Shown: in pieces, positions 7,911-60,746 of the stretch
Layout of the letters: the number at the start of each line of letters is the position of its first letter
Position numbering within the stretch: position 1 is the stretch's first letter
Source of the DNA: Candidatus Thalassarchaeaceae archaeon
Lineage (GTDB): Archaea > Thermoplasmatota > Poseidoniia > Poseidoniales > Thalassarchaeaceae
DNA: 64,000 nt
Assembly: GCA_023700245.1 (NCBI GenBank)
Contig: JAJPRE010000002.1
Coordinates: 34,363-98,362 of the forward strand
Direction: 5' to 3'
Notes under the pieces: model-generated
The model's database searches: none
Seen by the model: only the letters and a program-made list of their open reading frames with translations
Told to the model about the DNA's origin: nothing
Program-made: the position numbers and the translations under genes

Positions 7911-7956
7911 ATAATAACACAACTTTATCTATGACATTATCTCTAGAAGGGATTTA

Positions 7957-12507: not shown

Positions 12508-13104
12508 ATGGCGCTAATAGATGAACTAATATTCGATTTATTTGGACTTTCGGCACCTACTGGCATAGAAATAATATTTGCTGGATCCGCAGTGATTGGG
12601 GGGGCTCTATTCTTATTTTGGTTTGCACTAATGATGATTGGAGGCATAACTGCCGACTTATTTGATGGTTTACTTGGTACTGACATCGATGCAATTGGGG
12701 CAGATGCATCATTTAAAGCATTGACTTTTCAAGGAATTATGGTTTTTATGATGTTTTTTGGTCTAGGTGGACTTTTTGTTCTTAAATCAGATGGAGGTAA
12801 CTCAATTGCAGTATTCGTCGGAGGAGTTTGTGGATTTGTATCGATGTATGGGACTGGAAAAATGTTTGAATTTTTTGTAGGCTTACAAGCCGATGGCACA
12901 GTGGACATCTCCCAGTCTATAGGTGCAAAAGGTACTGTTTATCTAGGAATAACCGAAGGTGAAGTTGGTCAAGTCCAGGTTGAGGTTGATGGGACAATGC
13001 GCACATACCCTGCCCGATGTCTAAATAAAAATGCGATTGATTATGGTGTGTTAATTCAAGTAAAAGAAGTCGTGGCTGGTACATTATTAGTTGAAAGAAT
13101 TTAG
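12508..13104 (+). CDS. NfeD-like (short form) membrane protein with C-terminal OB-fold
   Basis: N-terminal TM helices followed by a C-terminal beta-barrel-like segment (GAKGTVYLGITEGEVGQVQVEVDGTMRTYPARC...VVAGTLLVERI). It sits directly upstream of flotillin, the canonical NfeD-SPFH operon arrangement. Confidence 0.65.
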   Translation: MALIDELIFDLFGLSAPTGIEIIFAGSAVIGGALFLFWFALMMIGGITADLFDGLLGTDIDAIGADASFKALTFQGIMVFMMFFGLGGLFVLKSDGGNSIAVFVGGVCGFVSMYGTGKMFEFFVGLQADGTVDISQSIGAKGTVYLGITEGEVGQVQVEVDGTMRTYPARCLNKNAIDYGVLIQVKEVVAGTLLVERI

Positions 13105-13195
13105 TATTTTTTTTTGTATTTTCTATTATTTATGATGTCAGGCCGGCGAAGCATTCATCACTGACTGCTATCTCATACATGTCGGAGAAGTTGAT

Positions 13196-14638
13196 ATGTC
13201 GGTATATGAGACAATGCAGGAAAGCAATAGTGGTACTGATGGTGGTGCAATATTAACAATAATGTTATTTGCAATAATGTTGGTTTTTGCTGGGACAATA
13301 ATGTTCTTTGCTCAAAGGTATAAGAGATGCCCTCCTGATAAAATTATGGTAGTATATGGTAGAACTGAAAAAGGTAGGGCTTCAAAAACAATTCATGGTG
13401 GTGCAACCTTAGTGTGGCCACTGATTCAAGATTATGCCTTTCTTCCATTGACTCCAATTACAATTTCCATACCACTTGAAAATGCACTATCTAAACAAAA
13501 TATTAGGATAAGTATTCCAAGTACCTTTACTGTTGCTATAAGTACCGAACCACCTGTTATGTCTAATGCTGCTAACCGCCTATTGGGACTTAATATTGCA
13601 GATATTGAATCTATGGCTGCGGATATAATTTTAGGTCAATTACGTTTAACAGTTGCATCACTTACTATCGAACAAATAAATCAAGATAGGGAAGCATTTC
13701 TTTTTGAAATTCAGAAAAACGTTGATACTGAACTCCTAAAAATAGGATTATATCTCATAAATGTGAATTTGGTTGATATTACTGATGACTCAATGTACAT
13801 AGACAGTATAGGGAAGAAAGCTGCCGCAACTGCTGTTAATAATGCATTAGTGGATGTTTCAAATGCTGAAAGGGATGGTGCAATCGGATCATCCTTAGCT
13901 AGAAGAGAAAAAGAAATCCAAGTTGCAGATAACAATGCACAAGCAGTAAAGGGGCAGAAGCAAGCAGAAGCAGATAGACGTACTTTCGTAGAAGAGCAAG
14001 AAGCATTTGCTATCACAGGAGAAAATACCGCAAAGGAATCAATTGCTAGATCTAATGCCCAATTGGAAATAGCACAAGCGTCGGCAAAACAAGATGCAGA
14101 AGTTGCAAAGGCCAACGCTGAAGCATCCATTCAACGTGCTAAATATGATGAGGCAGAAGAAACACTAAAGGCACAAGAAATCGTGCGTGAGGAAATTCAA
14201 AAGCAACAGATTGAAATTGCAGCAAATGCCGAAGCGCAACGTATCCGTCTCGTAGCACAAGGTGAAGCAGATGGACTATTGGCTAAGTATAAAGCTGAAG
14301 CTGAAGGTATTCAACAATTATTGGAGGCCAAAGCTACAGGTTATGCTAAGCTTGTTTCCAGTGCATCTGGTGATGCTAAGGCTGCCGCAACCCTACTTAT
14401 GGTTGAGAAAATTGAATCTATGGTTTCAGCCCAAGTGGAAGCAATACGCAACTTGAAAATTGATAAAATCACTGTCTGGGATGGAGGAAATGCATCGGGC
14501 GATGGTACATCTGCAACAAGTAATTTCGTCAGTAGTTTAGTACAGAGTTTACCTCCAATACATGATGTTGCAAAGATGGCAGGCGTAGATTTGCCGGATT
14601 ATTTGGGGTCACTAAATCAGCCTTCTGATGATTCTTGA
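13196..14638 (+). CDS. Flotillin / SPFH (band 7) family protein
   Basis: N-terminal TM, an SPFH domain and a long EA-rich coiled-coil flotillin region (AQASAKQDAEVAKANAEASIQRAKYDEAEE...AEAQRIRLVAQGEADG). Confidence 0.85.
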   Translation: MSVYETMQESNSGTDGGAILTIMLFAIMLVFAGTIMFFAQRYKRCPPDKIMVVYGRTEKGRASKTIHGGATLVWPLIQDYAFLPLTPITISIPLENALSKQNIRISIPSTFTVAISTEPPVMSNAANRLLGLNIADIESMAADIILGQLRLTVASLTIEQINQDREAFLFEIQKNVDTELLKIGLYLINVNLVDITDDSMYIDSIGKKAAATAVNNALVDVSNAERDGAIGSSLARREKEIQVADNNAQAVKGQKQAEADRRTFVEEQEAFAITGENTAKESIARSNAQLEIAQASAKQDAEVAKANAEASIQRAKYDEAEETLKAQEIVREEIQKQQIEIAANAEAQRIRLVAQGEADGLLAKYKAEAEGIQQLLEAKATGYAKLVSSASGDAKAAATLLMVEKIESMVSAQVEAIRNLKIDKITVWDGGNASGDGTSATSNFVSSLVQSLPPIHDVAKMAGVDLPDYLGSLNQPSDDS

Positions 14639-37504: not shown

Positions 37505-39226
37505 TTAATTATACGACAAATATCTTACAAAGCTACCATAAATAATTCCCGATAATGCTAAACTTTCTTCGTTAAATCTATCCATTGTATCTAAATAGGT
37601 GTGATACTCTGATGAACCAGAGCCATAACAAACCAAAGAATTCCCAAATTTATCTTCACTAATTTCATAAACAAACGGGGCATGATCTGAATTCTTGGGC
37701 ATTTCTTCAGAATCTAAAAGCATTACATTAATTTTGTATTTATCATATAAGTTACTATATTCATCCCTAAAGGTCTTAACAATTTTATTGATGTGGGATA
37801 TGTCATTATTGTTATTTCCGAATAAAGTTACCCCATTATTTCTTTCTAAGTCTACGTGATTCATATCCAAATTGATATACAGTCTGAGATCTTTTTCTAA
37901 TCTATTCTGATGTTTTTTTACCCATTCGCTTGACCCCAACAACCCTTCTTCTTCGCCTCCCCAAGTACAGAACCACAAGGTATATTCAGGCTCACCGTGT
38001 TCATTTAATATTTCACTAAATTGTCTAGATATTTCTTGAAGCGTAGCGGCCCCTGCAGTATTATCAATTGCTCCCTGGCCATTATAGACTGTGTCGTGAT
38101 GTGCACCAAAAATAATTAATTTATCCGTTTTACCTTGTATTATCCCACAAGGGACATATATTGTCCCAGTTCCTTGATTTTGAACATCAACAATCATTTG
38201 TATCCTTGAATTCCCATTAACTACTTCATTTACAATATACTCTCCAATACTTTTTGATGCCATTAAGAAACCAATGCTTTCTGGAAGATTACTAAAAGAT
38301 TCCACATTTAATGATTTAAAATATGGCACACAATCGTTTTCTATCAATTCTCCACAATTTGTTTTGTCATTAATTAAAATTAATCCTGATAATTGATTTT
38401 CTTGAGCTCTTAAAAACAATACTGTGTTATTTTCAGTTGCAGACTCATTATTTATTGAATCCCTAAGCCATACTAACCCTATTCCCTGTGATGCCGTGCC
38501 CCAATTTTTATCAGCACTTCCTACGCCTAAATCGATAACATTAGTTTCACTTGCATATCTGACGTCCATTGAACCACTGTATCCTTGAATTACATAATCT
38601 TCAGTATGTGTAAATTCTATTATATCTCTATTTACATCTGCAATTGAACATGGCGTAGGACCTGCTAAAATTCCTCCTATGTCTCCTGGAGTACATAATG
38701 ACAATTCAAATTGATTTCCCATTTCAAACATGGGGACTTCAAATTCTTCAATCGTTGAAGGTATATTCATTTCTGAGAAATTATATTTTATCGATTCAGC
38801 AGTATTTTTTTCTTCAATAGTTCCTGATAATCTTCCTCCCCAGTCTGGATGTCCGAGGTTAACCAGAGTTTGCGCGTACTCTCTAGATTGGTTTATATCA
38901 AAGTCTATTAAAATATAATCTTCTTCTCCGCCTATGATATCTAATATCCTATCTGAATTCAATAGTGCACCTCCAGACATGCCGATTATTACAATTACTA
39001 TTATCGATAACGTTGTGAATTGAATCGACTTTGTGTAATTATATTTGTCAGTAATGAAATTCATTATATGATATTTATTTTTTTTATCCTCTACAATCTC
39101 TGCATCAGTAAATATTTCACCCTCTAGTCTTTTTATGAGTTGGGCCTTATTTCCTGTATGAGGTAAATTATTATTTTTTAATTCGTATTTTAGTTCCTTA
39201 ATGGTCATATCATGCCAATTTTTCAT
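37505..39226 (-). CDS. M28-family aminopeptidase with PA domain, membrane-anchored
   Basis: N-terminal TM, M28 metal-ligand motifs (GAHHDTVYNGQGAIDNTAGAATLQE and WGGEEEGLLGSSEWV). Confidence 0.7.
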   Translation of the reverse strand: MKNWHDMTIKELKYELKNNNLPHTGNKAQLIKRLEGEIFTDAEIVEDKKNKYHIMNFITDKYNYTKSIQFTTLSIIVIVIIGMSGGALLNSDRILDIIGGEEDYILIDFDINQSREYAQTLVNLGHPDWGGRLSGTIEEKNTAESIKYNFSEMNIPSTIEEFEVPMFEMGNQFELSLCTPGDIGGILAGPTPCSIADVNRDIIEFTHTEDYVIQGYSGSMDVRYASETNVIDLGVGSADKNWGTASQGIGLVWLRDSINNESATENNTVLFLRAQENQLSGLILINDKTNCGELIENDCVPYFKSLNVESFSNLPESIGFLMASKSIGEYIVNEVVNGNSRIQMIVDVQNQGTGTIYVPCGIIQGKTDKLIIFGAHHDTVYNGQGAIDNTAGAATLQEISRQFSEILNEHGEPEYTLWFCTWGGEEEGLLGSSEWVKKHQNRLEKDLRLYINLDMNHVDLERNNGVTLFGNNNNDISHINKIVKTFRDEYSNLYDKYKINVMLLDSEEMPKNSDHAPFVYEISEDKFGNSLVCYGSGSSEYHTYLDTMDRFNEESLALSGIIYGSFVRYLSYN

Positions 39227-48071: not shown

Positions 48072-48156
48072 TGGTGCTGGGAGTGGGATTTGAACCCACG
48101 AAGGCCTTGCCACCGGAGCTTAAGTCCGGCCCCTTTGACCGCTCGGGTATCCCAGC
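48072..48156 (-). tRNA. tRNA-Leu (anticodon UAA) with long variable arm and encoded CCA
   Basis: Hand-folded. The acceptor GCTGGGA pairs with TCCCAGC. The anticodon stem is CCGGA/TCCGG with loop CTTAAGC. The T-arm is GTGGG-TTCAAAT-CCCAC. A 15-nt variable arm and discriminator A+CCA complete it. Confidence 0.85.
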
Positions 48157-48272: not shown

Positions 48273-51209
48273 ATGGAGAACTATTACACATCAGTTGAAC
48301 GTAACAAAAGTACTCTAATTGCTGTTTTTCTCGCATTATTAATTTTAGCGCCGATTTATATCGCCTCAACCTCTAATTTAGAACTCCATAACAAAGAAAA
48401 CAAGAAATTTGAAAACTCTCAAGATACTAATTTGTATAGATTATATTTTGCGGAAAATGATAATAATGGCTCCTCCGATGGTGATGGACTAATTACGACT
48501 AAAATTCCTGAAGATGGAGGGCAAGCAACTGCTAATGCATTAGATAACACAATTCAATTCTCTACGGCCAAACTTAGGTCCGCCTTGGACTTTACAACAC
48601 GTAGTTTACAAGGTAATAATGATTATTATATCCCATTAAATTTATTCTTAAGGGCCTCGGGACCTAGCGGCTCTACTGTAGATTGGACAGTCACTATGAA
48701 AGCATCTGGCTCCTCGATAGGTTCTGTTACTTTGACTTTCGATGCCTGCAATTCTGGAATAGGTAGTAGTTGTGACGATTTCGATTATGAGGTGTTTGAA
48801 GTAAGTGTTGGATCTAGGGAGCAATTTTCTGTTTCTAAAGATGAAAGATTAGAAATTATCATAGAAGCATCAATGGATAATTGCGATGGTGGAGGTCTTT
48901 TCTCCTCTTGTGAAGCTGAAATTGCATGGAATGAAATTGATGGTGACGGCAATAGATTTTCAAGTATGGAAGTTAATGCCAATGCAATAGCTGATAGTTT
49001 AGTTCTTTTACAAAGAGAAGGGTCTGAATTAGTTGAAGGACCGGAATTAGAATGGTATCCTAATGATATATTTTCTGAGAGGACAATGCAATTTACATTT
49101 GATGTAAAAAGTGCCTTTGGAAGATATGACATTGCCGATGTTCAACTTTTGATGAGGGATCCAAATGGCGTTTATCGTATTGATAAAGAAATCCAAAGTC
49201 AAAATAATGAGGATATTGAAGATACTAGTGCAGGAATATTTGGAAAATATATTTGGACGTATCCGAGTGGCCTCCCATCGGGAGATTACTCAATCGAATT
49301 AGAAGTCTCTGACATTCAAGGTAATACCATTGTTGTTGAGCATGAAACAATAAAAATGTTACAATGGGGGGTAGCAGTAAATCATCGATTTGATAATTAT
49401 ATTGAATTTATAGCACCAGGTGAGACTACACCCATTCCTCTTCAGTTAGTCCACAGAGGGGACTCAACTAAATCTATGCAAGTTGAAATGGAAGTTATTA
49501 CAAATTTAGGAAGCTCATGGCTTGTAGAATTTGACTCTCCTGGTGGTTATACATTAAGCCAAGGGGGTGATGTATTAAATCCAATTCTATCAATTACTGC
49601 ACCTGATGATCTAAGCACTACGCCGGGCAAGATAAAAATAAGGGCGATTGCAGAAGCAACAGTGGAAGGAGTTCTAACAGTTGTCCATCAAGACACTCTT
49701 GAATTGGATTTGGAAAAAATCGATGTTTACCAACCTCCTGAAATTTCCCTTTGGTCTGAAGAACATGATGTTGCAATAGCAAATTCAACCAGAGGCGATG
49801 CAATTGATCAAGATATACCAAGATATGTGGAATATGGTGAATTTAATCCATTCTTGTTGGAGATTTTTAATACTGGTTTTGATGCAGACTCATTTAGAAT
49901 AGATATTCTAAAACGTTCGAAAGCCATTTTTCAACTATTCGATAATGATACGGGAGAACGGATACTAGAGGATGAAGGGGATGGAACCTTTCACATATCA
50001 TTATTGGAAAGGCACTCTACTCAAATTCTAAAATTTAGTGTAAAACCCTCTGACGATAGGGAAGATTCAGATATTGGGCAGATAGAATTGGAAATAATCA
50101 GTGAAGGCAATGCGTCGTTGAGATCTACTATAGTTTTCACTATTCAGAGAACATTTGGCATAAGGGCTGAAATCTCACAAGATTGCGACGGAACTCCCTT
50201 GGGGCACATCGAAGTTTCCTTATGCGCACCAGATATGGATAAACCAACTGTGGATTTAAGGGCCAGAATTCTTAATACTATGGAAAATGATCAACCATCT
50301 ACTCTTTGGAGAATTCAAAATCCAGCATCATTAAATAAAAATTTAGATTTAAATCCACTTTATGGCCAGTGGCAATTTACAATCAAAGATAAAGATGGCA
50401 ACTCTGTCCCGAGAATCACTCTTGGACCTAATGATTATACTGAAGTATTTGTAACGATAACATTGACAAATCAGGTAGAAGTAGGTAATCATACTGTTTA
50501 TCTCAGAATAATAGAGGATACTGAGGATGAAAATCCTCGTTATTTTGATTTGCCTATGACGTTTGAGGTTGAAGCTTCAGATCCAAATCTTGAGATAGTC
50601 CAAGTATCGCCCGTATCTCGTTTTATACCTGGGGAATCATATTCGATTCAGATGAAGGTCAGAAATAGGGCCAATACTCCAATGACTGTATTATTAAATT
50701 CTGAAATCGAAGCCACTGGTTGGATTGTCTCAATAGAAGGCAAATCTGGATCTCCACTCATGGAACTAGGGGCTTTCGAAGAAGAGACTTTTACAATTGA
50801 TATAACGGTCCCTATTAACTCCAATAATGGCGATAATATACCAATCATAATTTCTGCATCTCCTCTTGATACTCAGCAAAGTTTTTCTGATGATTATACA
50901 GCTAAATTTACTCTAGATGCAGTTATTGAAATTTCTTCAGTAACTGAAATAATACTAAATGAATTGACTCATCCGAGATTATCAACTATGATTTTAGGTC
51001 TAGTCGGAGTTTTACTATTATTCGCAGGTGTTCAAAGCCGTATGAACAAAAGAAAATGGGCTGCTCAAATGGCATACTTGGAGATGATATCCGCTACAGA
51101 AAATAATAATGCTGAAGTGGATCAAATTCCCGAAATTCCAGAACCAGTTTTGGAGATAATTGATAACTCGGTAGATAGATATGAGGAAGAAGACATCGAA
51201 CTTGTGTAA
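48273..51209 (+). CDS. Large (978 aa) type-I membrane surface protein, beta-sandwich repeat ectodomain
   Basis: N-terminal signal anchor (LIAVFLALLILAPIYIAS), about 900 aa of Cys-poor, N-x-S/T-rich repeats, a C-terminal TM (MILGLVGVLLLFAGV) plus RMNKRK, and a short acidic tail. Confidence 0.6.
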   Translation: MENYYTSVERNKSTLIAVFLALLILAPIYIASTSNLELHNKENKKFENSQDTNLYRLYFAENDNNGSSDGDGLITTKIPEDGGQATANALDNTIQFSTAKLRSALDFTTRSLQGNNDYYIPLNLFLRASGPSGSTVDWTVTMKASGSSIGSVTLTFDACNSGIGSSCDDFDYEVFEVSVGSREQFSVSKDERLEIIIEASMDNCDGGGLFSSCEAEIAWNEIDGDGNRFSSMEVNANAIADSLVLLQREGSELVEGPELEWYPNDIFSERTMQFTFDVKSAFGRYDIADVQLLMRDPNGVYRIDKEIQSQNNEDIEDTSAGIFGKYIWTYPSGLPSGDYSIELEVSDIQGNTIVVEHETIKMLQWGVAVNHRFDNYIEFIAPGETTPIPLQLVHRGDSTKSMQVEMEVITNLGSSWLVEFDSPGGYTLSQGGDVLNPILSITAPDDLSTTPGKIKIRAIAEATVEGVLTVVHQDTLELDLEKIDVYQPPEISLWSEEHDVAIANSTRGDAIDQDIPRYVEYGEFNPFLLEIFNTGFDADSFRIDILKRSKAIFQLFDNDTGERILEDEGDGTFHISLLERHSTQILKFSVKPSDDREDSDIGQIELEIISEGNASLRSTIVFTIQRTFGIRAEISQDCDGTPLGHIEVSLCAPDMDKPTVDLRARILNTMENDQPSTLWRIQNPASLNKNLDLNPLYGQWQFTIKDKDGNSVPRITLGPNDYTEVFVTITLTNQVEVGNHTVYLRIIEDTEDENPRYFDLPMTFEVEASDPNLEIVQVSPVSRFIPGESYSIQMKVRNRANTPMTVLLNSEIEATGWIVSIEGKSGSPLMELGAFEEETFTIDITVPINSNNGDNIPIIISASPLDTQQSFSDDYTAKFTLDAVIEISSVTEIILNELTHPRLSTMILGLVGVLLLFAGVQSRMNKRKWAAQMAYLEMISATENNNAEVDQIPEIPEPVLEIIDNSVDRYEEEDIELV

Positions 51210-51252: not shown

Positions 51253-51262
51253 CATTATATAA
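51253..51262 (+). promoter_or_regulatory. TATA-like box (cattatataa) about 25-30 nt upstream of the giant ORF ATG
   Basis: Sits in the 77-nt gap between the 978-aa and 2980-aa genes, which implies an independent, leaderless transcript. Confidence 0.4.
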
Positions 51263-51286
51263 CCCCCCAGAAATGAGGATAGCATC

Positions 51287-54200
51287 ATGAATAGGATTTT
51301 ATTAAATTCTGATGCAAATATAACCAACAGAAAAAAGAAATCAGCAGTATTTTTTAGCATTATAATGGTTTTTTCAAGTTTTCTCGCCATGGAATATGGT
51401 ATATGGGAGGCTATGGCAACCACTGATCAAGATGGCGATGGGTTGAGTTATGGTATTGAATTTTTTATTAATACTCAGCCACAAGATTTTGATACTGATA
51501 ATGATGGTTTACCTGATGGTTGGGAATGGCAATATGGACTTGACCCATTATCTTCAGTAGGAAACAATGGGTCTACAGGAGATCCAGATTTAGATTCCTT
51601 GACTAATTTAAATGAGTATTTATATTCAATTCCTTCAAATTGGGATTTTTCAGGTACTCCAAATGTATTGGATAATGGCGTATGGTGGAATGGCACCGTT
51701 CCCGTTAGTAATTGGGATGAAGAAAGCGCAATGCAACTTCTACAAGGGTCTGGTAGTGATGGGTTTGATGAAGATCCAATGGGGAATATTTGCACCGACT
51801 CTTTTGATAATGATAAGGATGGTTTAGTCGATTCTTTTGATAATGATAATGATGGAGATGCTGATTGTTCATCTGATGACGATGACGGAGATGGACTAAT
51901 AGATGAAGATAGAAATGGCTGGGATACTGATGGAGATGGAATGCCCGATGGGTGGGAGGTTGCACACAACTTAGATCCAACTTCAAACTCAAATATGGAC
52001 GGTACTTTTGGAGATCCGGATAATGATGGTTTGATTAATTTGTATGAATATGTAAACCCTGCTTGGAATACTAGGAACGGATCAACATTCCCTCCAACTC
52101 AATATTTTAGACCAGGGCCTGACAATATGTCGTTTACAACGTCTCCTTGTAATCCAATGCTGGAACTGGGGCCGGGGGGGTGTCAATTTCTGACTGCAGA
52201 GGTTGATGGAATAACGCAAACCGACCCTCAAAGTAATGATACTGATTTAGATGGATTAAATGATTCCTATGAAGCTTTGATTTTACTTACAGATCCAACA
52301 TCACCAGACACAGATGGAGATGGAATAAATGATGGTATTGAAGTAAATGGCCAGTATGGAGATCCAGAACAAGGGTCCAATCCGCTTGACAATAATACTG
52401 ATGGGGATTACCTCGAAGATGGCGAAGAAGATCTAAATGGAAATGGGCTGATCGACGTCGGAGAAACAGATCCTACTCGGATAGAGGATGATGGCGATTT
52501 CGATGGCGATGGATTACAAAATTGGGAAGAAAATCTAACTTGTACATTATGGAATTTAGCTGATAGCGATGGAGGAGGTGCCACCGATGGAGAAGAACTT
52601 GATTTCATGAGGGCTACAAATCCATGCATGTCATATGTGAATTTAGAATTTTCAATATTAAATTATGATATATCTACAAAAGAACTAACTCTTAATTCCA
52701 CTGATGGGATTAATCCAAATCCAATTGACTGGAGGCAAACAGATTATCCAATGGCATATTATAATAATACTTCAGGTGACTTAACGGGATTTAGATTCGT
52801 AAGTATTTTTGGTAATAGTCTTAGAGGTATTGATTTAGATATGCCATTAGGAACTTCAACTATAATTATTACTAATGGATCATGGTGTTGGAATGCTACT
52901 GTTGGGGCAATCAATGATCCTCATTGCGATGACGATTACTCTGATTTAGATTCAGATGGATTGGCAGATTGGGAAGAACTAGTTGGAACTTGGGGATACA
53001 TCTCAAATATAAATATGTCAGATTCGGATGGAGATGGAGTAAATGATTTATCTGAAATACAAAATTTAACAGATCCTTTGGAGCCCTGCGACAATATATT
53101 GGATTCAGATATGGATGGATTAAATAATTATTTTGAAAATAACACTGGCTGCAGTTTGTCGTTTGGAATTACTCAAGGAAATTTGACCCAAGATAGTTAT
53201 ATTACTCTTTGGAATCAATCTGATTCCGACAGTGGAGGAGTTACTGATGGTCAAGAATACCTCGATGGCACTAATCCTCAAAATAATCCTAATGATGATA
53301 TTAATCCAACAGATACAGATGGTGATGGAATTCCAGATACTATTGAACAAGATATAGGAACAAATTGGCTAGATCCGGATACTGATGGCGGCGGCATTCC
53401 TGATGGCCAAGAGTGTCCTGAATCTTTTTGGATTAATGATTGTGTAGATGCACCCACGGATCCTTTTAATTCTTCAGATGATATCTTATATAATTCATTA
53501 TTCTTTTCAGCATATAATCTCTCATCAGGCCTTGACACAGGCATGAAACATTACTGGAGATGGCACACATATGATAGTTATACGGGAGTTTCTTGGGGGG
53601 TAAATTCAAGCCTCATCGGAAATACTCTTATTACTCCCTCATCGAACATAAGTCAAGGTGTAGCAGATTCTTCATTTTGGAACTCTTCTTCTGCTCTTGA
53701 CTGGCAATTAGTTTATCAAGATGGAATTATGGCCCCAGGAATTGAATTAATATCTCCATATAATTCATATGAATTTGACAGTTGGTCTGATGCTTCTGCA
53801 GGATTAAATTTTTCAAATTATACTCGTGATATCATTATTGACAATTCTAATATTGAAAACTTATATGTTTCGGCACCAGAAATAATATTGGGCCCTCAAA
53901 TAAGAGATAATTCGACAATTTTTTCTGGAAGTAGTTATGCCACATCTTTACCAGAATCATACTTGAATGATTATGGCATTCAAGTAAATAATATAACTCA
54001 GCAAATAATAAATAACTCCGGAGCTGTTTCAGCATGGGATAAAATTATTGCTATTCAAGATTTTATAATTAATGGTAATGAAACTATAACATTTTTACGT
54101 AACCATGATGGCTCTTCTAGGCCCAATAATGCCGGGATAGATAGCGATATTTCAAATTGGATTTTAACTTCTTCATTTGAAGGAAGTTGTGATGAATTTA

Positions 54201-57200
54201 CATCTCTATTTACAGTTATGTTACGCCATGCAGGAATGCCAACTAGAAAAGTTACGGGATTCTCAGGAGGAGAATGGACTGGCAAATCATATGACGTCTA
54301 CGGAGGTGATTTTACATGGTGGGCAGAAGTACATCTACAAACTAATCAAAATCAAGGAAACTTAGATCTGGGTTGGATACCCTTTGAAGCGTGTCCGCCG
54401 TTGTCCTTGGTTGAGGTCTTGGATGTATCATGGTCTCCAGATGTTCTTGGACGGGATTTGAATATTGGCCAAAATATTTCTGTTCAAGGGACATTGCAAT
54501 TTGTTACCAACTCTACTTCCGTATCTGATATAACACTCTCATTATACTTGGTTTCCCCGCTGGATATATCTGATATACCTGGATCTGCTGCAATTCCTGA
54601 ACATCTTGTCGCAACTACAACATCTGATTCAAACGGATTTTTTAATTTATCTGGATTACCAGCCGAAATTCTCAGTCCCGGCTATGCCTCTTTAGTCATT
54701 CAAACTTCAAAGAAAAATTATGTTGGAAACCAAGGAATCTCATTTTCTTGGATGATTAATATAACAGATGATGTTAATTTATCTATTCTTGATCCATTCC
54801 CAGTTGATCAACCAATGATAGGCGTTGGAGTCAATACAACCATTTCTGGTCAAATGTCTTGGAAAAACGATCCTAAAATCGATCCAACTACAGTTGATAA
54901 TCTACAATTAGAATTAATTTATTCTACTTCATTAGATGGTAATGTAGAATTAATTAGTGACGTAGGACCAGGGGGATATTTTGAATTTATAATCTCATTA
55001 CAAGACCAAGAGCCCTTAGGGCTAATTAATGCTTCATTGGAGTTTTCAGGATGGCATCAAGATGATTTGAATAATGACTCCAATCCAACATATCATGCAA
55101 TGCCCAATATATATTCATTCATGTTTGAAGTAACTCCATCTCCGAATATGACAGTAGTTTTAGAAAGTAAAAATTCTAACAACTCTATCATTGATATCGA
55201 CTCAAATATATTTTTAAATGGGTCAGTATTAAGTAGAGGATTAAGTCAAGATGCACTGAATGGAACTGTTTATCTAGATATGCGCAAATCCAATTTTAAT
55301 GGCCCGTTTATCGGTATTAAATCATGGCAACTAAACAATTCTTCTTGGATCGATGATCCCGGTAATTTTTCAATTAATTGGCTATTTAATGCCTCAGAAG
55401 TTCCAATACCCGCTGGACCAGTCGAAGTAAGAATTAGATTTGACGCCGATATTTTAACTTCTAATGACCAGGAAATATTTACCGATATTTATGGGATAAG
55501 GAGTAATATATTCTTCAATTATTCTCTTGCTTCAAAAATGAGAGGTATAGCTGCAGAAGTAGATGTAATATTGACTGATCATACAGGTACTTCACTTGCA
55601 AACTTTGAAGGCAATTATAGATTAGAATTTAATGGCGAAGAAGTTTGGAATATTACTGACCCAATTAACCCTAAGTTACTAGTAAGTTGGACGCCCGCTC
55701 TTGCCACTATTCCGGATGATTATAATTGGTCATTGTTCTATAATGGTTCAAAATGGTTAAATCCAAATAATTCTATTGATGAAATAAGGATAAAGGGAAG
55801 AGGTAATGTTACTACGAATTTGGGCTTCGAATGGTCACAAGGAGGCAACCTATCTTCTCAAAATTGGGTCAGAGGTTTTACTAATGATATAATGTCCAAT
55901 AATCCAATTATTGGAAATAACTCCTCCATAACTTTGTCACTACATGTTCCAACAGATTTACCCCCTACTCCTGATGGTTTTCCTTCTCCTCCAACTATAT
56001 ATGTCTTATCTAGCGACTGGATAGATGTGCAAACAGGTGAATATAATTTATCTTTCATAATGCCGGGAGATGTTGGTTCAGGAGCTTATGAATTATACTT
56101 AGAATTAGATTTTAATCTAAATCCCCCTCCTGGAGGTATATTTTACCAAGACACATCACCCGTCTTAGTAAATGCTGGAATACAAACTGAATTCATCGTT
56201 GAATTAAATTCTTCTGTAGCCATAGTCACCGCAGGGAATACTCTCAACTTAAATGCATCAATCAGTGATTTTGCCGATTCATCACGACTAGGTGATATTA
56301 CTGTAGAATTATATTTTGACTGGGGAGGTAACTCTCAACAATTACTTGATTCTACTATTTCAAATTCCGATGGTGATGCACTATTTGACCCAATAATTCC
56401 TGTTAATACATTACCAGGTTATTATCAAATTCGAATTTTAGCACCTGATGATATAGATGATAATTTGTCTGATATTGGTGCAGGAAGATGGCTTGAAGGT
56501 GAAGATTTTGCTAACTTAACCGTCCGAGTCGGAAGTGTAATTGAAATAGATTCAATACCTGCTGAAGTCACTGCTCTACAATATTTTACAGTTTCCGGTA
56601 GAGTGATGGATTCTGTTGATGCAAACAGGACTGTACAGGGCCCCGTTGAAATAGAAATTTTCTTTTTAGATGATCCGAATGAAATTTTAATTACTGATTT
56701 CACCACCAGTAATAATGGTAGTTTTACCGTTTCGGTTCCTACGGATGTATTGGGTAACGGCGTAACTAGCGGGGTCAGAACTCTAATTATTAGTGTAGTA
56801 AACGACTCCAGTCCATTCTATTTATCTGGAACTGGTGATACTAGCATATTAGTTCGGGGAATTCCTAATTTTATAGAAACTACTCCTTTAATTAATACAG
56901 TTATAGATAGGGGGACATCTGTAACAATAGGCGGAAGACTTGTGGAATTTAGCGATAATAATATTAATTTAAACGGCCTTCAAGTAGCCGCTAAATTTCA
57001 TGAAACTTGGTTGGATAATAATATTACTGATAATCAAGGGAATGTAAATTTTGATTTCCTTATACCAAATGATCACCCTTTAGGGCTTGTAAATGTAACT
57101 CTGTTTTTTAATGGTTCAAGTACTTTAAACTCTATATTTGAAATAATTAATACAATTTCTATCAGATCATCAACGTCTATTCAAATATATCCAATAACTG

Positions 57201-60200
57201 CAAATCCATTGCCTGGGGATTTCTTTAACGTTACTGGTTCATTAATTTCTAGTAATGGAAGCTCGGTAGTAAATAGGCAGGGAGCATTATTATCTCCTGC
57301 ATTAACATTTTCAATAAATGATGAATCAGATACCTTTACTGTTTCTTCACTATCCTTTTCAGATGATGGTAACTGGAGTGGAATTATCAGATTAGATTTG
57401 ACATTTTCCCGTGGAGTTAATGAAATAATGGTGATTTACACTCCAGATGTTAACTATTATGACTCTAGTGAAAATACCTCTATATTTAGTAGTAGGGGAT
57501 ACTCATTGCTCACAATTTTGGATCCTTCAGATCTAGATTCAGATAGTAGGACAATTAGGGGAGAATCAGTTGCTATAAATATGTCAATAATTGATAATGC
57601 GGGTAACCCAGTTCCATCTGTTCCTTATGATGTAAGTATTGAAGGATTACTGATAAGTTCATCTAATACTGATTTAGAAGGGCTATCGACTACCATTTTA
57701 AATATAGATCAATTCACAAAGGTTGGCCCTGTGAAAATAACTGTTTCATTTAATGGGATAAATAGTACTATTGGACTACTTGGAGATGAAGCATGGACAA
57801 GAATAATAATTTTGGCACCAACTAACTTGAATGCATTGATAGTGGAAGGAGAATTTATAGCCGGTGAGAAAATTACATTTTCAGGAATTCTTACCGACGA
57901 ACATTCAGATAGTCTATTTACTGATGTATCTCCATCGGGAGGAATCATACATCTATTCATCGATGATATTGACGCAGGACCACTCTATACAACTCAATCA
58001 AATGGAACTACAAGATCATGGAGTATTGTATATGATATTCCTGAAGATATGAATTACGGTTTACATACGGCTACAATGAAATTTCTGGGAGGCTTTACTT
58101 GGGTCAATCCAATGGGCCAGGGGGACTCCTTAAATCCTGAATATTACTTACCTTCATCGGATATAATGGAATTTAATATATCTCAAGTATCAAAGGTTAT
58201 TATTACAACGTCAATTACAGACGTCGATCGTAACGATCTCGTCTTGATCGAGGGGCAATTCACTGATCTAGTTAGCAGACCAATTCCCGATAGGCCTTTA
58301 AATGCATATATTGACGAATATTTGTTGACAGAATTATTTGTAAATGAGACAGGATTTTTTAGTATATATGTCCCCATTTCTCCAAATATGAAATTAGGGC
58401 CACGCATAATTTCCGTAGAATTCATGGGTGAAGAATTTATACTTCCATCAAATTCATCAACTGTATTCATTGTTCATGGACCAGTATATCCAATTGTTAA
58501 TTCACTAAATCCCATCGCAGTTGGAGACATTTTAGAAATTAGTGGTTTGGTTAAAGATAACCTTCAGGATGGCTTTCTCCCTAATCATACATTGGAATTA
58601 TTTGTAGATGATGTATTAATTGGCATAACTACATCTACTGACGAAGGATATTGGTATTATGACTATATCATTCCTGAAACTTTAGAAATTGGAAATCATA
58701 CATTCACGGTATTAAGCCCAGAACAAGGTTACCACCGTCAAGGAAATTTTGATACTAATCTTACCGTAGCATATCATACTAAAATTTCATTATCAATAGG
58801 TTCTCAATATGCAACGAGAGGAGATAACTGGAACTTCACAGGCAGACTTTATGAAGATGATACTCAATTTCAAATGGGACTTCAAGGAAGAAATATATTG
58901 GTACTTCTGGATGGTATTGAAATTTCCACTATTACATCAAATGACGATGGGACATTCAATTATAATCATACTCTGGGATATCAAATTTCTCGAGGAATGC
59001 ATGAATTCAAGTTTTCATTTGTTGGCGAATTATTTTATCTAGCATCAAATACAAATATTACTACTTTTGTTAATTCTGATATCCAAATAGAAATCTTACC
59101 AATTACTCATACCATAGTACGAAGTTCAAGTACTCAGCCTATTAAAATTCAGGGCTTTGCTAGAGAAATAGGTGGGCAATTCAGTATATTCGAGAATTTA
59201 TCAATAAATCTATTTTGGGAAAATAGCAATTTACCACTTAAATCTGATCCTTGGGCCAACTCCGGAACATTAAATTTTCAAATTATTTCTACCGCTCGAC
59301 AGTTTATGTTACCAGGAATAAATACTCTTGATTTAATTATTGAATCTGATGAAAATAGATATCTAAATGGTGCATCTATAGAAATTGATGTATTGGTTCT
59401 TGTCCAAATAGACTTTGATTTCTCTGATCTCGGCCTAGTTAATGGTCAGAGGATTTTGCAAGGTTCTGTGAATCTAACAGCTAATGATACGGGTGAAATG
59501 TTACCTGGAGTCTCTATGTCTGCTTTATTATTGAATGGTTCAACAACTCATTTTTCATCTACAAAACTAACTGATGAAAATGGGAGATTTAACTTTGAAT
59601 TTAAAGCTCTTTCGCCCTTACCGCCTTTATCGGATAAATTAATTTGGGGAGATTTAAATGTACAAATTAGTTCTAATTCAATATTTATTGATCCAATCAG
59701 CCTATCCAACTTAGCATTACAAGGGCACATGGAAATTATTTATGAAGAACCAGATTCTGAATATATTTTTGGCCCATTTATGTTGATAATAGGATCTATA
59801 TTGATCGTATCTCTACTGATAACTTCCTTCATATTATATGGTCGGCGTAAAAAATCTGAGTTATCGGAAATTGCAAATATTTTTAGTTATGCATCAGAAC
59901 TTTTAGCCGCAGGTGATGAAGTACGTTCTTCAATTTTTATCTGTTATCAAAACCTTTGTGAAGTACTGATGCAAAGAGGATTTTTAAGGAGAGGATTTGA
60001 AACTGTTAGGGAATTTGAATTAGCTATTAGAACAGCTTTACCTGAAATACGCGAAGAATCACTAATTGCGTTAGATCGTATTTTCGAAGAAGCCAGATAT
60101 TCAAGCCATATTTTGGGTGAAAATCATCGAAGTAATGCAACACTTGCACTGACCTCTGTAGTAAATGAAATCAACTCTCTTGAGGAAATACCAAATCGGG

Positions 60201-60229
60201 AAAATGAAATAGTTTCGGACATTAAGTAA
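51287..60229 (+). CDS. Giant (2980 aa) surface protein: signal anchor, TSP3-like Ca-binding repeats, transglutaminase-like core, Ig-like repeats, TM, and a cytoplasmic DUF4129-like tail
   Basis: Uninterrupted 8.9-kb frame. DxDxDG(L/I)PDGWE repeats span aa 45-720. The TGase core has GSCDEFTSLFTVMLRHAGMPTRKVTGF (Cys968) and FTWWAEVHL (His1016). About 1,900 aa of roughly 100-aa repeats follow. The TM is FMLIIGSILIVSLLITSFILYGRRKK. The tail contains TVREFELAIRTALPEIRE and IFEEARYSS. Confidence 0.75.
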   Translation: MNRILLNSDANITNRKKKSAVFFSIIMVFSSFLAMEYGIWEAMATTDQDGDGLSYGIEFFINTQPQDFDTDNDGLPDGWEWQYGLDPLSSVGNNGSTGDPDLDSLTNLNEYLYSIPSNWDFSGTPNVLDNGVWWNGTVPVSNWDEESAMQLLQGSGSDGFDEDPMGNICTDSFDNDKDGLVDSFDNDNDGDADCSSDDDDGDGLIDEDRNGWDTDGDGMPDGWEVAHNLDPTSNSNMDGTFGDPDNDGLINLYEYVNPAWNTRNGSTFPPTQYFRPGPDNMSFTTSPCNPMLELGPGGCQFLTAEVDGITQTDPQSNDTDLDGLNDSYEALILLTDPTSPDTDGDGINDGIEVNGQYGDPEQGSNPLDNNTDGDYLEDGEEDLNGNGLIDVGETDPTRIEDDGDFDGDGLQNWEENLTCTLWNLADSDGGGATDGEELDFMRATNPCMSYVNLEFSILNYDISTKELTLNSTDGINPNPIDWRQTDYPMAYYNNTSGDLTGFRFVSIFGNSLRGIDLDMPLGTSTIIITNGSWCWNATVGAINDPHCDDDYSDLDSDGLADWEELVGTWGYISNINMSDSDGDGVNDLSEIQNLTDPLEPCDNILDSDMDGLNNYFENNTGCSLSFGITQGNLTQDSYITLWNQSDSDSGGVTDGQEYLDGTNPQNNPNDDINPTDTDGDGIPDTIEQDIGTNWLDPDTDGGGIPDGQECPESFWINDCVDAPTDPFNSSDDILYNSLFFSAYNLSSGLDTGMKHYWRWHTYDSYTGVSWGVNSSLIGNTLITPSSNISQGVADSSFWNSSSALDWQLVYQDGIMAPGIELISPYNSYEFDSWSDASAGLNFSNYTRDIIIDNSNIENLYVSAPEIILGPQIRDNSTIFSGSSYATSLPESYLNDYGIQVNNITQQIINNSGAVSAWDKIIAIQDFIINGNETITFLRNHDGSSRPNNAGIDSDISNWILTSSFEGSCDEFTSLFTVMLRHAGMPTRKVTGFSGGEWTGKSYDVYGGDFTWWAEVHLQTNQNQGNLDLGWIPFEACPPLSLVEVLDVSWSPDVLGRDLNIGQNISVQGTLQFVTNSTSVSDITLSLYLVSPLDISDIPGSAAIPEHLVATTTSDSNGFFNLSGLPAEILSPGYASLVIQTSKKNYVGNQGISFSWMINITDDVNLSILDPFPVDQPMIGVGVNTTISGQMSWKNDPKIDPTTVDNLQLELIYSTSLDGNVELISDVGPGGYFEFIISLQDQEPLGLINASLEFSGWHQDDLNNDSNPTYHAMPNIYSFMFEVTPSPNMTVVLESKNSNNSIIDIDSNIFLNGSVLSRGLSQDALNGTVYLDMRKSNFNGPFIGIKSWQLNNSSWIDDPGNFSINWLFNASEVPIPAGPVEVRIRFDADILTSNDQEIFTDIYGIRSNIFFNYSLASKMRGIAAEVDVILTDHTGTSLANFEGNYRLEFNGEEVWNITDPINPKLLVSWTPALATIPDDYNWSLFYNGSKWLNPNNSIDEIRIKGRGNVTTNLGFEWSQGGNLSSQNWVRGFTNDIMSNNPIIGNNSSITLSLHVPTDLPPTPDGFPSPPTIYVLSSDWIDVQTGEYNLSFIMPGDVGSGAYELYLELDFNLNPPPGGIFYQDTSPVLVNAGIQTEFIVELNSSVAIVTAGNTLNLNASISDFADSSRLGDITVELYFDWGGNSQQLLDSTISNSDGDALFDPIIPVNTLPGYYQIRILAPDDIDDNLSDIGAGRWLEGEDFANLTVRVGSVIEIDSIPAEVTALQYFTVSGRVMDSVDANRTVQGPVEIEIFFLDDPNEILITDFTTSNNGSFTVSVPTDVLGNGVTSGVRTLIISVVNDSSPFYLSGTGDTSILVRGIPNFIETTPLINTVIDRGTSVTIGGRLVEFSDNNINLNGLQVAAKFHETWLDNNITDNQGNVNFDFLIPNDHPLGLVNVTLFFNGSSTLNSIFEIINTISIRSSTSIQIYPITANPLPGDFFNVTGSLISSNGSSVVNRQGALLSPALTFSINDESDTFTVSSLSFSDDGNWSGIIRLDLTFSRGVNEIMVIYTPDVNYYDSSENTSIFSSRGYSLLTILDPSDLDSDSRTIRGESVAINMSIIDNAGNPVPSVPYDVSIEGLLISSSNTDLEGLSTTILNIDQFTKVGPVKITVSFNGINSTIGLLGDEAWTRIIILAPTNLNALIVEGEFIAGEKITFSGILTDEHSDSLFTDVSPSGGIIHLFIDDIDAGPLYTTQSNGTTRSWSIVYDIPEDMNYGLHTATMKFLGGFTWVNPMGQGDSLNPEYYLPSSDIMEFNISQVSKVIITTSITDVDRNDLVLIEGQFTDLVSRPIPDRPLNAYIDEYLLTELFVNETGFFSIYVPISPNMKLGPRIISVEFMGEEFILPSNSSTVFIVHGPVYPIVNSLNPIAVGDILEISGLVKDNLQDGFLPNHTLELFVDDVLIGITTSTDEGYWYYDYIIPETLEIGNHTFTVLSPEQGYHRQGNFDTNLTVAYHTKISLSIGSQYATRGDNWNFTGRLYEDDTQFQMGLQGRNILVLLDGIEISTITSNDDGTFNYNHTLGYQISRGMHEFKFSFVGELFYLASNTNITTFVNSDIQIEILPITHTIVRSSSTQPIKIQGFAREIGGQFSIFENLSINLFWENSNLPLKSDPWANSGTLNFQIISTARQFMLPGINTLDLIIESDENRYLNGASIEIDVLVLVQIDFDFSDLGLVNGQRILQGSVNLTANDTGEMLPGVSMSALLLNGSTTHFSSTKLTDENGRFNFEFKALSPLPPLSDKLIWGDLNVQISSNSIFIDPISLSNLALQGHMEIIYEEPDSEYIFGPFMLIIGSILIVSLLITSFILYGRRKKSELSEIANIFSYASELLAAGDEVRSSIFICYQNLCEVLMQRGFLRRGFETVREFELAIRTALPEIREESLIALDRIFEEARYSSHILGENHRSNATLALTSVVNEINSLEEIPNRENEIVSDIK
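51420..53460 (+). repeat. Coding array of TSP3-like DxDxDG calcium-binding repeats within the giant ORF
   Basis: Recurrent gatggNgatgg... codons encoding DQDGDGL, DTDNDGLPDGWEW, DNDKDGLVD, DTDGDGMPDGWEV, DPDNDGLINLYEY, DTDLDGLND, DTDGDGINDGIE, DSDGDGVNDLSE, DTDGDGIPDTIE and DTDGGGIPDGQE. Confidence 0.7.
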
Positions 60230-60236
60230 CTGATTC

Positions 60237-60746
60237 CTAATTACTCAATTCTAGCGTACCTTGGGACCAAACTCCTTTACTAATTTTAATGCTATCATTG
60301 ATCAAGAATTCCTCAATATTACCTCCGAATGTATTCGGTACAATAATTCTTAGATGGGTACGTTTTTCGTTAATTTCAACGATTATATCCTTTGGAGAAT
60401 TTGATTCTAAAGGAATTAAAAAATTAGATTTAAATTCTATAGATTTTGAAATATCCTCAAATATACTTAAATTACGTATTTGTTTTAAAGATTCTTTTTT
60501 GTCTTCCATTGAATCTGATAATTTTGATATCATTTTATTATGGCTAGATTTAACCTCATTTAAATGAGTTAATCCATTTAGAAATGAATCATGCATTTTT
60601 TCTGCGTTGTTATCTAATCCAAAATCTTCATTACTACCCGGGCCATATCTATCTTGTTCTGATTCTAAAATTGATATTTCCAGTCTTTCCCAATCCATGT
60701 TATCAACTTGGCCCACAGGTTCGATGTGCATTAACTCATTGTTCAA
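60237..60746 (-). CDS. Hypothetical acidic 169-aa protein, translationally coupled to XPD
   Basis: ATGA start/stop overlap with the upstream helicase (60743-60746). Acidic N-terminal half with a beta-rich C-terminal half. No confident motif. Confidence 0.45.
   Translation of the reverse strand: MNNELMHIEPVGQVDNMDWERLEISILESEQDRYGPGSNEDFGLDNNAEKMHDSFLNGLTHLNEVKSSHNKMISKLSDSMEDKKESLKQIRNLSIFEDISKSIEFKSNFLIPLESNSPKDIIVEINEKRTHLRIIVPNTFGGNIEEFLINDSIKISKGVWSQGTLELSN

Follow-up and report, generated by a model that had tools for sequence, protein, structure and literature searches.

A giant surface protein conserved across Poseidoniales carries a TgpA-like module lacking the canonical catalytic His and Asp and probably serves as an envelope fibre or adhesin, not as an enzyme

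The window analysed here, a 64-kb stretch of DNA from a Candidatus Thalassarchaeaceae archaeon, contains a giant gene at 51287..60229 (+) encoding 2,980 aa plus a stop codon. The ORF list and translation gave one uninterrupted frame, as the original prediction of a single 2,980-aa ORF had stated. A homologue search returned >2,000 clusters; the best 120 homologues were 2,660–3,017 aa long (all but one 2,937–3,017 aa), with 39–97% identity and 89–100% query coverage. Orthologues were near-constant in size (2,937–3,088 aa) at about 38–97% identity and occurred in MGIIb and MGIIa MAGs, i.e. in both Poseidoniales families; all Marine Group II (Poseidoniales) archaea examined carried one.

Directly upstream and in the same orientation lies UP978 (48273..51209, +), a predicted 978-aa bitopic, all-beta, COG1470-like surface protein, characterised by synteny, AF2, Foldseek and UniRef. 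Its TM helices fall at aa ~11–30 and ~903–925 and its C-terminal tail is acidic. The AF2 model (pLDDT 71.7) was all beta, with no alpha/beta vWA-like region; Foldseek gave generic tandem beta-sandwich matches only, and the UniRef label was 'COG1470 family protein'. UP978, the giant gene and XPD were contiguous in 10/10 blastp-tested loci, including MGIIa, and gene calls gave the same order at locus L065, where the UP978 position is taken by a gene of ~981 aa that matches NPCBM_assoc faintly. The order PDH E1/LipA/SDR - UP978 - giant - XPD/RHH was seen at all loci long enough to show it, and UP978 identity tracked giant-protein identity across loci. The earlier claim that the giant protein has no partners was therefore not upheld, as a co-oriented ~980-aa surface-protein gene sits directly upstream in every tested orthologous locus; judging by this strict synteny, its product is probably a working partner. 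The claimed absence of MoxR and DUF58 did hold: neither AAA_3/MoxR nor DUF58 was found among the window's ORFs with a length of 120 aa or more, nor in the orthologous loci inspected.

Hydropathy and sequence placed a putative signal peptide or signal anchor, also foreseen originally, at aa 1–44 (51287..51418, +), where a hydrophobic segment (aa 20–36) is preceded by a KKK n-region and followed by AMA|T. Next comes an acidic, putatively Ca-binding head (aa 45–725; 51419..53461, +), recognised by motif counts and a Pfam TSP3_bac match (28.5 bits on the giant protein; gathering cut-off 25). At least 10 TSP3-type Ca-binding repeats had been proposed, and we counted 13 strict D.D.DG..[DN] motifs at aa 69–684, against 0.09 ± 0.31 when that region was shuffled 2,000 times, as well as ~19 loose DxDxDG motifs in the head. 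A scan of the whole giant protein found no strict motif outside aa 69–684. The head contains six conserved sequential Cys pairs; in the protein as a whole 16/16 Cys were conserved and arranged as sequential pairs. A second TSP3-tagged secreted hydrolase is encoded in the same window.

At the other end, Pfam and repeat profiles delineated a sequon-rich stalk of about 1,780 aa (aa 1046–2824; 54422..59758, +) comprising roughly 17 beta-sandwich (Ig-like) domains. Units at aa ~1630–2650 are interrelated (internal profile E-values down to 6e-13); Pfam matches in the stalk were weak (CarboxypepD_reg, Big_1), and orthologues matched Big_3_5, MG2, bMG3 and MG4. N-x-S/T sequons were enriched about twofold in the ectodomain (85 vs 40.8 ± 5.5 in shuffles), with one in the tail, in agreement with the N-glycosylation-rich beta-sandwich repeats anticipated from the first reading. 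The stalk leads into a single predicted C-terminal transmembrane helix (aa ~2825–2851; 59759..59839, +; hydropathy) followed by RRKK; positive-inside residues flank the N-terminal and C-terminal hydrophobic segments alike. The remaining 129 aa (aa 2852–2980; 59840..60226, +), containing TVREFE and FEEARYS, form a predicted cytoplasmic DUF4129 tail. This helix and tail had been expected, and the DUF4129 assignment stood in hhalign comparison with classical TgpA-like tails (probability 96.1%, E 3.5e-9) but not by the Pfam cut-off, with a DUF4129 score of 21 bits (E 3.6e-4) slightly below 24.8. PF13559 is annotated among the precomputed matches of many orthologues, and the profile comparison establishes homology between this tail and those of classical TgpA.

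Between head and stalk lies a TgpA-like ectodomain (53462..54421, +), consisting of a beta-sandwich N-domain (aa 726–900) and a transglutaminase-fold core (aa 901–1045). The Pfam check of this region recovered Transglut_core, as anticipated, at aa 953–1035 (E 5.9e-11, 43 bits vs a cut-off of 23). Because this core match is accompanied by the 96% hhalign probability of the tail, sequence similarity shows that the Poseidoniales module descends from the TgpA family. Cys968 and His1016 had been described as a textbook catalytic pair. Cys968 (54188..54190, +) does occupy the canonical nucleophile position and was invariant (121/121), but His1016 is not at the canonical position: in the alignment with TgpA (PDB 6g49), the catalytic His of 'DAHAWVE' falls on Thr1010 of 'DFTWWAE' (54314..54316, +). 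Column counts over 121 orthologues gave T72/S18/A13/D8/G4 at position 1010, with His in 0/121, and H94/R15/Q9/K2/N1 at position 1016. The canonical Asp position, Glu1034, was variable (E64/D34/Q12/N7/K2) and is followed by Ala1035 and the invariant Cys1036 (together 54386..54394, +). No invariant His was found in aa 726–1060 of the 121 sequences, and classical ~730-aa relatives from the same profile search retain C...HxWxE...FDP[ST]P. These alignments show that the module has lost two of three catalytic residues (His and Asp) order-wide. Since Cys968 and Cys1036 are both invariant in the 121 sequences and are the sole Cys of aa 726–2824 (~2,100 extracellular residues) in 76/121 orthologues, they suggest a Cys968-Cys1036 disulfide; Cys counts were even in 112/121. 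The loss of the catalytic His and Asp makes a structural or binding envelope protein more likely than a surface enzyme, although retained unconventional chemistry would also fit the invariant Cys968, the WxE motif and several core Arg/Asp.

Pseudomonas aeruginosa TgpA (PA2873; TgpA_N + Transglut_core + DUF4129) shares with the giant protein the profile-matched Transglut_core, a nucleophile Cys in a common helix-N-terminal context, and an extracytoplasmic TGase module followed by a TM helix and a cytoplasmic DUF4129 tail. The TGase domain of TgpA is periplasmic and its C-terminus comes after the sixth TM helix (PMC3507681), so the shared modules have the same topology and the architecture is not 'inverted' as first described. 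It is expanded, as claimed: TgpA is smaller by a factor of about 4.3. The polytopic TgpA_N is absent, replaced by the signal/anchor segment and ~680-aa TSP3 head, and an insertion of ~1,780 aa, made up of Ig-like repeats, separates the core from the TM helix. In addition to losing the catalytic His and Asp, the Poseidoniales protein has an additional invariant Cys at Asp+2, and it is accompanied by a conserved ~980-aa all-beta surface partner instead of a moxR-DUF58 operon. The notion that TGase-DUF4129 proteins always sit in such operons and had no archaeal counterpart was not supported. Haloarchaea (Natrinema sp. 74, L024; Haloferacaceae archaeon DSL9, L039) carry classical AAA_3-DUF58-TgpA_N/Transglut_core/DUF4129 operons; their TgpA proteins, likewise archaeal with Transglut_core and DUF4129, are 778–918 aa stop-to-stop, with TgpA_N and with AAA_3 (MoxR) and DUF58 upstream, all of which the Poseidoniales protein lacks.

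Other giant proteins combining TGase, Ig-like repeats, TM helix and DUF4129 are also common in databases. The metagenomic P0129, P0132, P0138 and P0140 (2,800–3,250 aa), P0150, P0192, P0213 and P0159 share this order of TGase-fold, Ig-like repeats, TM and DUF4129, but have 2–7 TGase modules, most with a canonical C/H/D triad, and often bear HEAT repeats together with a polytopic domain at the N-terminus. P0159 (3,310 aa) also resembles the Poseidoniales protein in its TSP3 head and in having TGase-like domains that are degenerate and non-catalytic, but its genomic context differs, with WD40 beta-propeller genes on its flanks. Non-catalytic transglutaminase folds also occur in erythrocyte protein 4.2 and Rad4/XPC, which are eukaryotic and cytoplasmic or nuclear; protein 4.2 lacks the Cys, whereas the Poseidoniales module keeps it and has lost His and Asp.

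Taken together, these results make the giant protein a probable envelope fibre or adhesin without catalytic function. The reading we prefer, at a probability of roughly 0.55, is a constitutive giant surface fibre, anchored in the membrane near its C-terminus and heavily N-glycosylated, that has an envelope role and whose TgpA-like module is non-catalytic. From the membrane outward, the layout would be DUF4129 tail, TM helix, ~17-domain stalk of fixed length, TgpA-like module and a distal, disulfide-knotted, Ca2+-binding TSP3 head. Cys968 would probably be locked to Cys1036, making the module most likely a structural or ligand-binding pseudo-enzyme, neither transglutaminase nor protease. The fibre probably acts together with the UP978 product, although the giant gene's own candidate TATA-like and SD-like signals weigh against this. 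Its tail might link the fibre to some cytoplasmic partner, a place that the MoxR/DUF58 machinery may fill in classical systems.

In a possible but less probable alternative, the protein would be a niche adhesin that attaches to particles, phytoplankton or other cells. The TSP3 head and pseudo-TGase would then bind external ligands in a Ca-dependent manner and the stalk would only project them, the protein having no part in envelope construction. Tandem Ig-like repeat stalks are typical of giant adhesins, and the head resembles the DxDxDG TSP3 runs of the Myxococcus cell-surface adhesion proteins CglD and MtsD; these NCBIfam matches were partial, TSP3-driven and sub-threshold (86 and 44 bits; cut-offs 400 and 800), and the remaining architecture is unrelated. 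TSP3 genes of Poseidoniales have already been interpreted as adhesion-related (PMC6461757), and the TSP3-tagged hydrolase in the window points the same way. However, adhesins are usually accessory and variable in copy and repeat number, whereas the giant gene occurs as a single copy in strict synteny amid housekeeping genes, and its length is almost constant over order-level divergence, including deep-water and mostly free-living lineages. A place in the core genome, synteny as a single copy and a length that barely changes all point to a housekeeping protein that would serve envelope architecture, spacing or surface binding dependent on Ca; sequence alone cannot separate envelope architecture from adhesion.

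Still less likely is the surface enzyme originally proposed, namely a transglutaminase or cysteine protease that is active outside the cell and would cross-link or cleave S-layer, prey or particle proteins, tuned by the Ca repeats and coupled to DUF4129. The above-threshold Transglut_core match, the TgpA fold and the invariant nucleophile position are compatible with activity, and TgpA itself has TGase activity in vitro (PMC3507681). This proposal is nevertheless doubtful because the order as a whole has lost the canonical His and Asp: T, S, A, D or G replaces the His in 121/121 orthologues, the Asp position is unconserved, and the domain is without any invariant His, His1016 lying six residues further along the same strand and being R/Q/K/N in 27/121. 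A lone extracellular thiol in oxic seawater beside a second invariant Cys would be more simply explained by a disulfide. Selection is also strongest elsewhere, with positions conserved at ≥95% making up 39% of the TSP3 head and 33% of the DUF4129 tail but 12% of the TGase core, which is among the less conserved regions.

An artefact of annotation or assembly (for instance fused genes or a pseudogene) with fortuitous TGase and DUF4129 similarities was rejected as extremely improbable, as its one point of support, the slightly sub-threshold DUF4129 score of the query, is set against same-size full-length orthologues on >100 independent contigs from many samples, the intact frame and the 96% tail match. 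The giant ORF is a real gene, and it may possess its own expression signals (51254..51279), namely a candidate TATA-like 'attatataa' (51254-51262, +) and a candidate SD-like 'gagga' (51275-51279, +), both read from the sequence 5' of the ATG at 51287.

The giant gene (51287..60229, +) was a single uninterrupted ORF of 2,980 aa in the ORF list and its translation, and a search of 5.8 billion proteins recovered more than 2,000 homologue clusters. The best 120 of these shared 39–97% identity with the query over 89–100% of its length and were 2,660–3,017 aa long, all but one falling between 2,937 and 3,017 aa. Homologue clusters of such near-constant length led us to reject an assembly accident as the origin of the ORF, and the original prediction of one giant protein with the listed parts was largely correct as an observation. 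Where homologues were named, they were called 'transglutaminase domain-containing protein' or 'hypothetical protein', and where a source was given it was Candidatus Thalassarchaeaceae, Marine Group II (MGII) or Thermoplasmatota. The taxonomic spread was taken from a scan of genome contigs and is a lower bound (at least the genomes listed). The window has a GC content of 32–42% and contains housekeeping archaeal genes identified by Pfam (class I LysRS, aRF1, aTrm56 and XPD), which fits a Poseidoniales chromosome. A literature search returned no paper describing the giant protein and none combining Marine Group II with transglutaminase, and Orellana 2019 contained nothing on it.

The protein begins with a predicted Sec signal peptide or signal anchor (aa 1–44), comprising KKK, a hydrophobic stretch at aa 20–36 and AMA followed by T. 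This is followed by an acidic head (aa 45–725; 22% D+E) containing about 19 loose and 13 strict D.D.DG..[DN] motifs, compared to 0.09 ± 0.31 strict motifs expected from 2,000 shuffles; no strict motif was found in the remainder of the protein. TSP3_bac (PF18884) matched four stretches of the head at 28.5 bits (cut-off 25), and the repeated DxDxDGxxD loops correspond to predicted Ca-binding repeats of the thrombospondin type 3 (TSP3) kind (PF18884 TSP3_bac / PF02412). NCBIfam matches of the head to the myxobacterial adhesion proteins CglD and MtsD were sub-threshold and driven by the repeats. A TgpA-like module (aa 726–1045) comes next, as supported by Pfam and an AF2 model. As had been anticipated for aa 900–1060, Transglut_core (PF01841) matched aa 953–1035 at 43 bits (gathering score 23, E 5.9e-11), and precomputed PF01841 matches were present in all orthologues. 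The AF2 model of aa 730–1100, built on 40 orthologues (pLDDT 88.7, pTM 0.88), had the two-domain extracytoplasmic fold of PDB 6g49/6g4h.

Between this module and the membrane lies a beta-sandwich stalk (aa 1046–2824), defined by Pfam and internal repeat profiles. Pfam gave weak CarboxypepD_reg and Big_1 matches in the query and Big_3_5, MG2, bMG3 and MG4 matches in orthologues; we took the faint MG2, bMG3 and MG4 matches as generic beta-sandwich similarity and not as a sign of an alpha2-macroglobulin-like protein. Profiles of 120-aa windows matched one another across aa ~1630–2650 (E down to 6e-13), which indicates roughly 17 Ig-like domains. A long Ig-like array thus connects the TM anchor with the TSP3 head at the far end, as in giant fibres and adhesins. 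The sole strong TM helix (aa ~2825–2851) is followed by RRKK and a predicted cytoplasmic tail (aa 2852–2980). The query tail alone scored just below the cut-off for DUF4129 (PF13559; 21.0 bits compared to 24.8, E 3.6e-4), and many orthologues carried precomputed PF13559 matches. In hhalign, a profile of nine giant-protein tails and one built from ten classical tails (TgpA-like proteins of ~730 aa) aligned with a probability of 96.1% (E 3.5e-9). Profile-level homology therefore places the tail in DUF4129, as predicted. Hydropathy, the positive-inside rule (satisfied at both hydrophobic segments), the distribution of sequons (85 outside, compared to 40.8 ± 5.5 expected, and one in the tail) and 16 Cys residues, all conserved and in sequential pairs, point to a surface topology in which the large N-terminal part would be outside and the tail inside.

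Directly upstream of the giant gene, and co-oriented with it in 10/10 loci tested by blastp from both Poseidoniales families, is the gene for a 978-aa surface protein, UP978 (48273..51209, +; ~966–1,095 aa across loci). In a further orthologous locus, L065, the gene in this position encodes ~981 aa and matches NPCBM_assoc faintly. Gaps between the two genes were short, with both frames abutting or overlapping in one locus (L018), and identities of UP978 and the giant protein to the window copies ran in parallel (73/70, 56/57, 43/45 and 32/38%, respectively). The cassette always lay between PDH-E1/LipA/SDR(/FolB) and XPD/RHH, a core-genome position; in the window, a tRNA-Leu(TAA) gene (48072..48156, −) separates folB from the cassette. 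A TATA-like 'attatataa' and GAGGA occur just upstream of the giant gene, so it may not be co-transcribed with UP978. UP978 has a TM helix near either terminus and matches NPCBM_assoc and FixG_C weakly, and one orthologue is named 'COG1470 family protein' in UniRef. We considered whether UP978 was a cryptic, vWA-like DUF58 protein and rejected this, since it had no Pfam DUF58 match, its AF2 model (pLDDT 71.7) was all-beta with no alpha/beta vWA-like region, and Foldseek returned only generic tandem beta-sandwich arrays (TM-scores 0.1–0.17). A second neighbour, a 169-aa acidic ORF downstream (60237..60746, −), is probably not a partner: it lies on the opposite strand to the giant gene, matches no family and evolves fast, with a small ORF in the same position in gene-called orthologous loci showing 19–40% or undetectable identity. 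Its 4-nt overlap with the end of the XPD helicase gene makes it a probable member of the XPD operon.

Overall, the giant protein is conserved across the order, in a syntenic position and at constant length. We infer that it would act as a constitutive envelope fibre, in which a glycosylated stalk of fixed length projects the predicted Ca-binding head; it would work with UP978, and its DUF4129 tail may engage a conserved cytoplasmic partner. A serious rival to this reading is that the protein is a niche adhesin, and the widespread 'thrombospondin genes' of Poseidoniales were noted by Rinke et al. as a hint of adhesion (PMC6461757). Constant length and core-genome synteny argue instead for envelope architecture, making a niche adhesin somewhat unlikely. 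Its occurrence as a single copy throughout the order, at constant length and with a conserved partner, makes the giant protein a strong candidate for one of the main components of the envelope or of attachment. Marine Group II archaea, which rank among the most abundant surface-ocean microbes, are uncultured, and next to nothing is known of their cell envelope; the giant protein thus provides a defined object for metaproteomics and cryo-ET and for cell sorting based on antibodies or FISH.

The original prediction was of a surface transglutaminase or protease with Cys968 and His1016 in textbook contexts. In the HMMER alignment to TgpA (6g49), 'GFCAHYA' was placed over 'GSCDEFT', which puts Cys968 at the nucleophile position, and 'DAHAWVE' over 'DFTWWAE', which puts the catalytic His position at Thr1010 rather than His1016. 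His1016 is on the same strand, six residues beyond the canonical position. Residues were counted in a MAFFT alignment of the query and 120 orthologues (n = 121). Cys968 was invariant (121/121), as was Cys1036, two residues after the canonical Asp position. Position 1010 was Thr in 72 sequences, Ser in 18, Ala in 13, Asp in 8 and Gly in 4, and never His; position 1034, that of the canonical Asp (Glu1034 here), was Glu in 64, Asp in 34, Gln in 12, Asn in 7 and Lys in 2. His1016, the His of the proposed pair, was present in 94 sequences and replaced by Arg in 15, Gln in 9, Lys in 2 and Asn in 1. No invariant His was found in aa 726–1060 among the 121 sequences, and thus neither the conserved Cys-His dyad in canonical geometry of active papain-like or transglutaminase-fold enzymes nor the Cys-His-Asp triad of the TgpA family, of which only the Cys is kept. 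MGIIa orthologues from GTDB genomes showed the same residue pattern.

Two of the three triad residues have been lost across the order. In 76/121 orthologues, Cys968 and Cys1036 were the only Cys between aa 726 and 2824, and Cys counts were even in 112/121. In animal transglutaminases, the second residue beyond the catalytic Asp forms part of the wall of the active-site tunnel, which makes a Cys968-Cys1036 disulfide plausible. These residue patterns suggest that the module has become a pseudo-enzyme, which this putative disulfide would stabilise. Selection, as judged from the alignment, is not strongest on the transglutaminase core, where 12% of positions were ≥95% conserved compared to 39% in the head and 33% in the tail. 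An active but unconventional enzyme would accommodate the invariant Cys968; with the canonical His and Asp missing and the core so weakly conserved, we consider it quite improbable. A covalent adhesin of the thioester (Cys-Gln) type acting through the lone Cys was dropped because the domain has no invariant Gln.

The giant protein descends from the TgpA family, with which it shares Transglut_core, the two-domain fold and a TM helix with a DUF4129 tail; its description as TgpA-like, expanded (2,980 aa) and DUF4129-coupled was upheld. TgpA of P. aeruginosa, an essential protein, spans the inner membrane with six TM helices and is transcribed together with PA2875 and PA2874; its periplasmic domain (aa 180–544) is a transglutaminase active in vitro without Ca2+ (PMC3507681). 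The TGase module of TgpA is thus also outside the membrane, and nothing in the giant protein is 'inverted', as had been proposed. In contrast to the polytopic TgpA_N of TgpA (PF11992, former DUF3488; six TM helices in PA2873), the giant protein has one N-terminal hydrophobic segment and no TgpA_N match, whereas haloarchaeal and Hydrogenophaga proteins, used as positive controls, did match. The moxR (AAA_3)-DUF58-tgpA neighbourhood is also absent: neither MoxR nor DUF58 was found in the 64-kb window by motif regex or by Pfam on presumed coding ORFs of ≥120 aa, without overlapping shadow ORFs, nor AAA_3 or DUF58 in the gene-called orthologous loci L001–L003 and L065; for the remaining orthologous loci, the comparison was solely with proteins encoded in the window. 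The absence of MoxR and DUF58 was thus borne out, while UP978 contradicts the absence of partners altogether.

The classical operon exists in archaea too, as Natrinema sp. 74 and a Haloferacaceae genome encode AAA_3, then DUF58, then a protein with TgpA_N, Transglut_core and DUF4129. In the Hydrogenophaga flava locus L041, the ORF between AAA_3 (MoxR) and tgpA (7614..8660), where DUF58 was expected, had no Pfam match at E ≤ 1e-3; it was read stop-to-stop, and the frame may be wrong in this high-GC genome.

A paper that mentions DUF4129 gives no mechanism for it. That the tail is under strong selection despite loss of the triad and of MoxR/DUF58 suggests that DUF4129 may have a function independent of both. 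The giant protein is therefore a natural experiment on a poorly understood family, and a handle on DUF4129 function and on the envelope of an abundant, uncultured archaeal order, rather than a new kind of system. Two bolder proposals are, taken together, a long shot: that the cassette is the main MGII envelope scaffold, or that Cys968/Cys1036 form a redox-gated, His-independent catalytic centre. The scaffold would be a glycosylated, Ca2+-stabilised canopy of fixed length, with the pseudo-TgpA module and DUF4129 tail as a MoxR-independent transmembrane link between surface and cytoplasm. If true, the former would concern the ocean's most abundant planktonic archaea and the latter would be new chemistry for the transglutaminase fold.

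Searching 1.84 billion representatives with a profile yielded 23,893 matches; many are 1,200–3,300 aa long and combine 2–7 TGase modules and Ig repeats with a TM helix and a DUF4129 tail. Gigantism is thus not unique to the Poseidoniales protein. Classical TgpA-like proteins from this search retained C...H-x-W-x-E...F-D-P-[ST]-P. In the archaeal protein P0159 (L066 8001..17933; 3,310 aa), a TSP3 head is combined with seven TGase-like stretches, of which the two that were read had neither the catalytic Cys nor the catalytic His. P0159 also has a TM helix and a DUF4129 tail, with a long charged extension at the C-terminus; its genomic context, with WD40 beta-propeller genes on the flanks, differs from that of the Poseidoniales giant. 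Particular to the latter is a combination of five features, all conserved order-wide: a single TgpA-like module that has lost His and Asp and kept Cys, alongside a further invariant Cys; a head of TSP3 repeats; a stalk fixed at roughly 17 domains; the lack of TgpA_N, MoxR and DUF58; and a dedicated all-beta partner.

Four other matches (P0129, P0132, P0138 and P0140; 2,800–3,250 aa) have an undescribed multi-TGase architecture: the N-terminus is polytopic and TgpA_N-like, HEAT-repeat regions lie between the 3–4 canonical TGase domains, and there are also Ig-like repeats, a TM helix and a DUF4129 tail.

Elsewhere in the window, a second TSP3-tagged extracellular protein (7957..9444, +; 495 aa, secreted) has both a chlorophyllase-like alpha/beta-hydrolase domain and a TSP3 repeat (PF02412, 35.9 bits). 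A 198-aa membrane protein without a Pfam match is followed by a Band_7/flotillin protein (12508..14638, +); flotillin has been discussed as aggregation-related in Poseidoniales (PMC6461757). An M28 peptidase (37505..39226, −) has an N-terminal SAP domain and then a hydrophobic segment, an unusual pairing of SAP with an apparently membrane-anchored aminopeptidase. Two ABC permease genes (1174..5081, +; 773 and 529 aa) encode long polytopic N-terminal extensions before BPD_transp_1.
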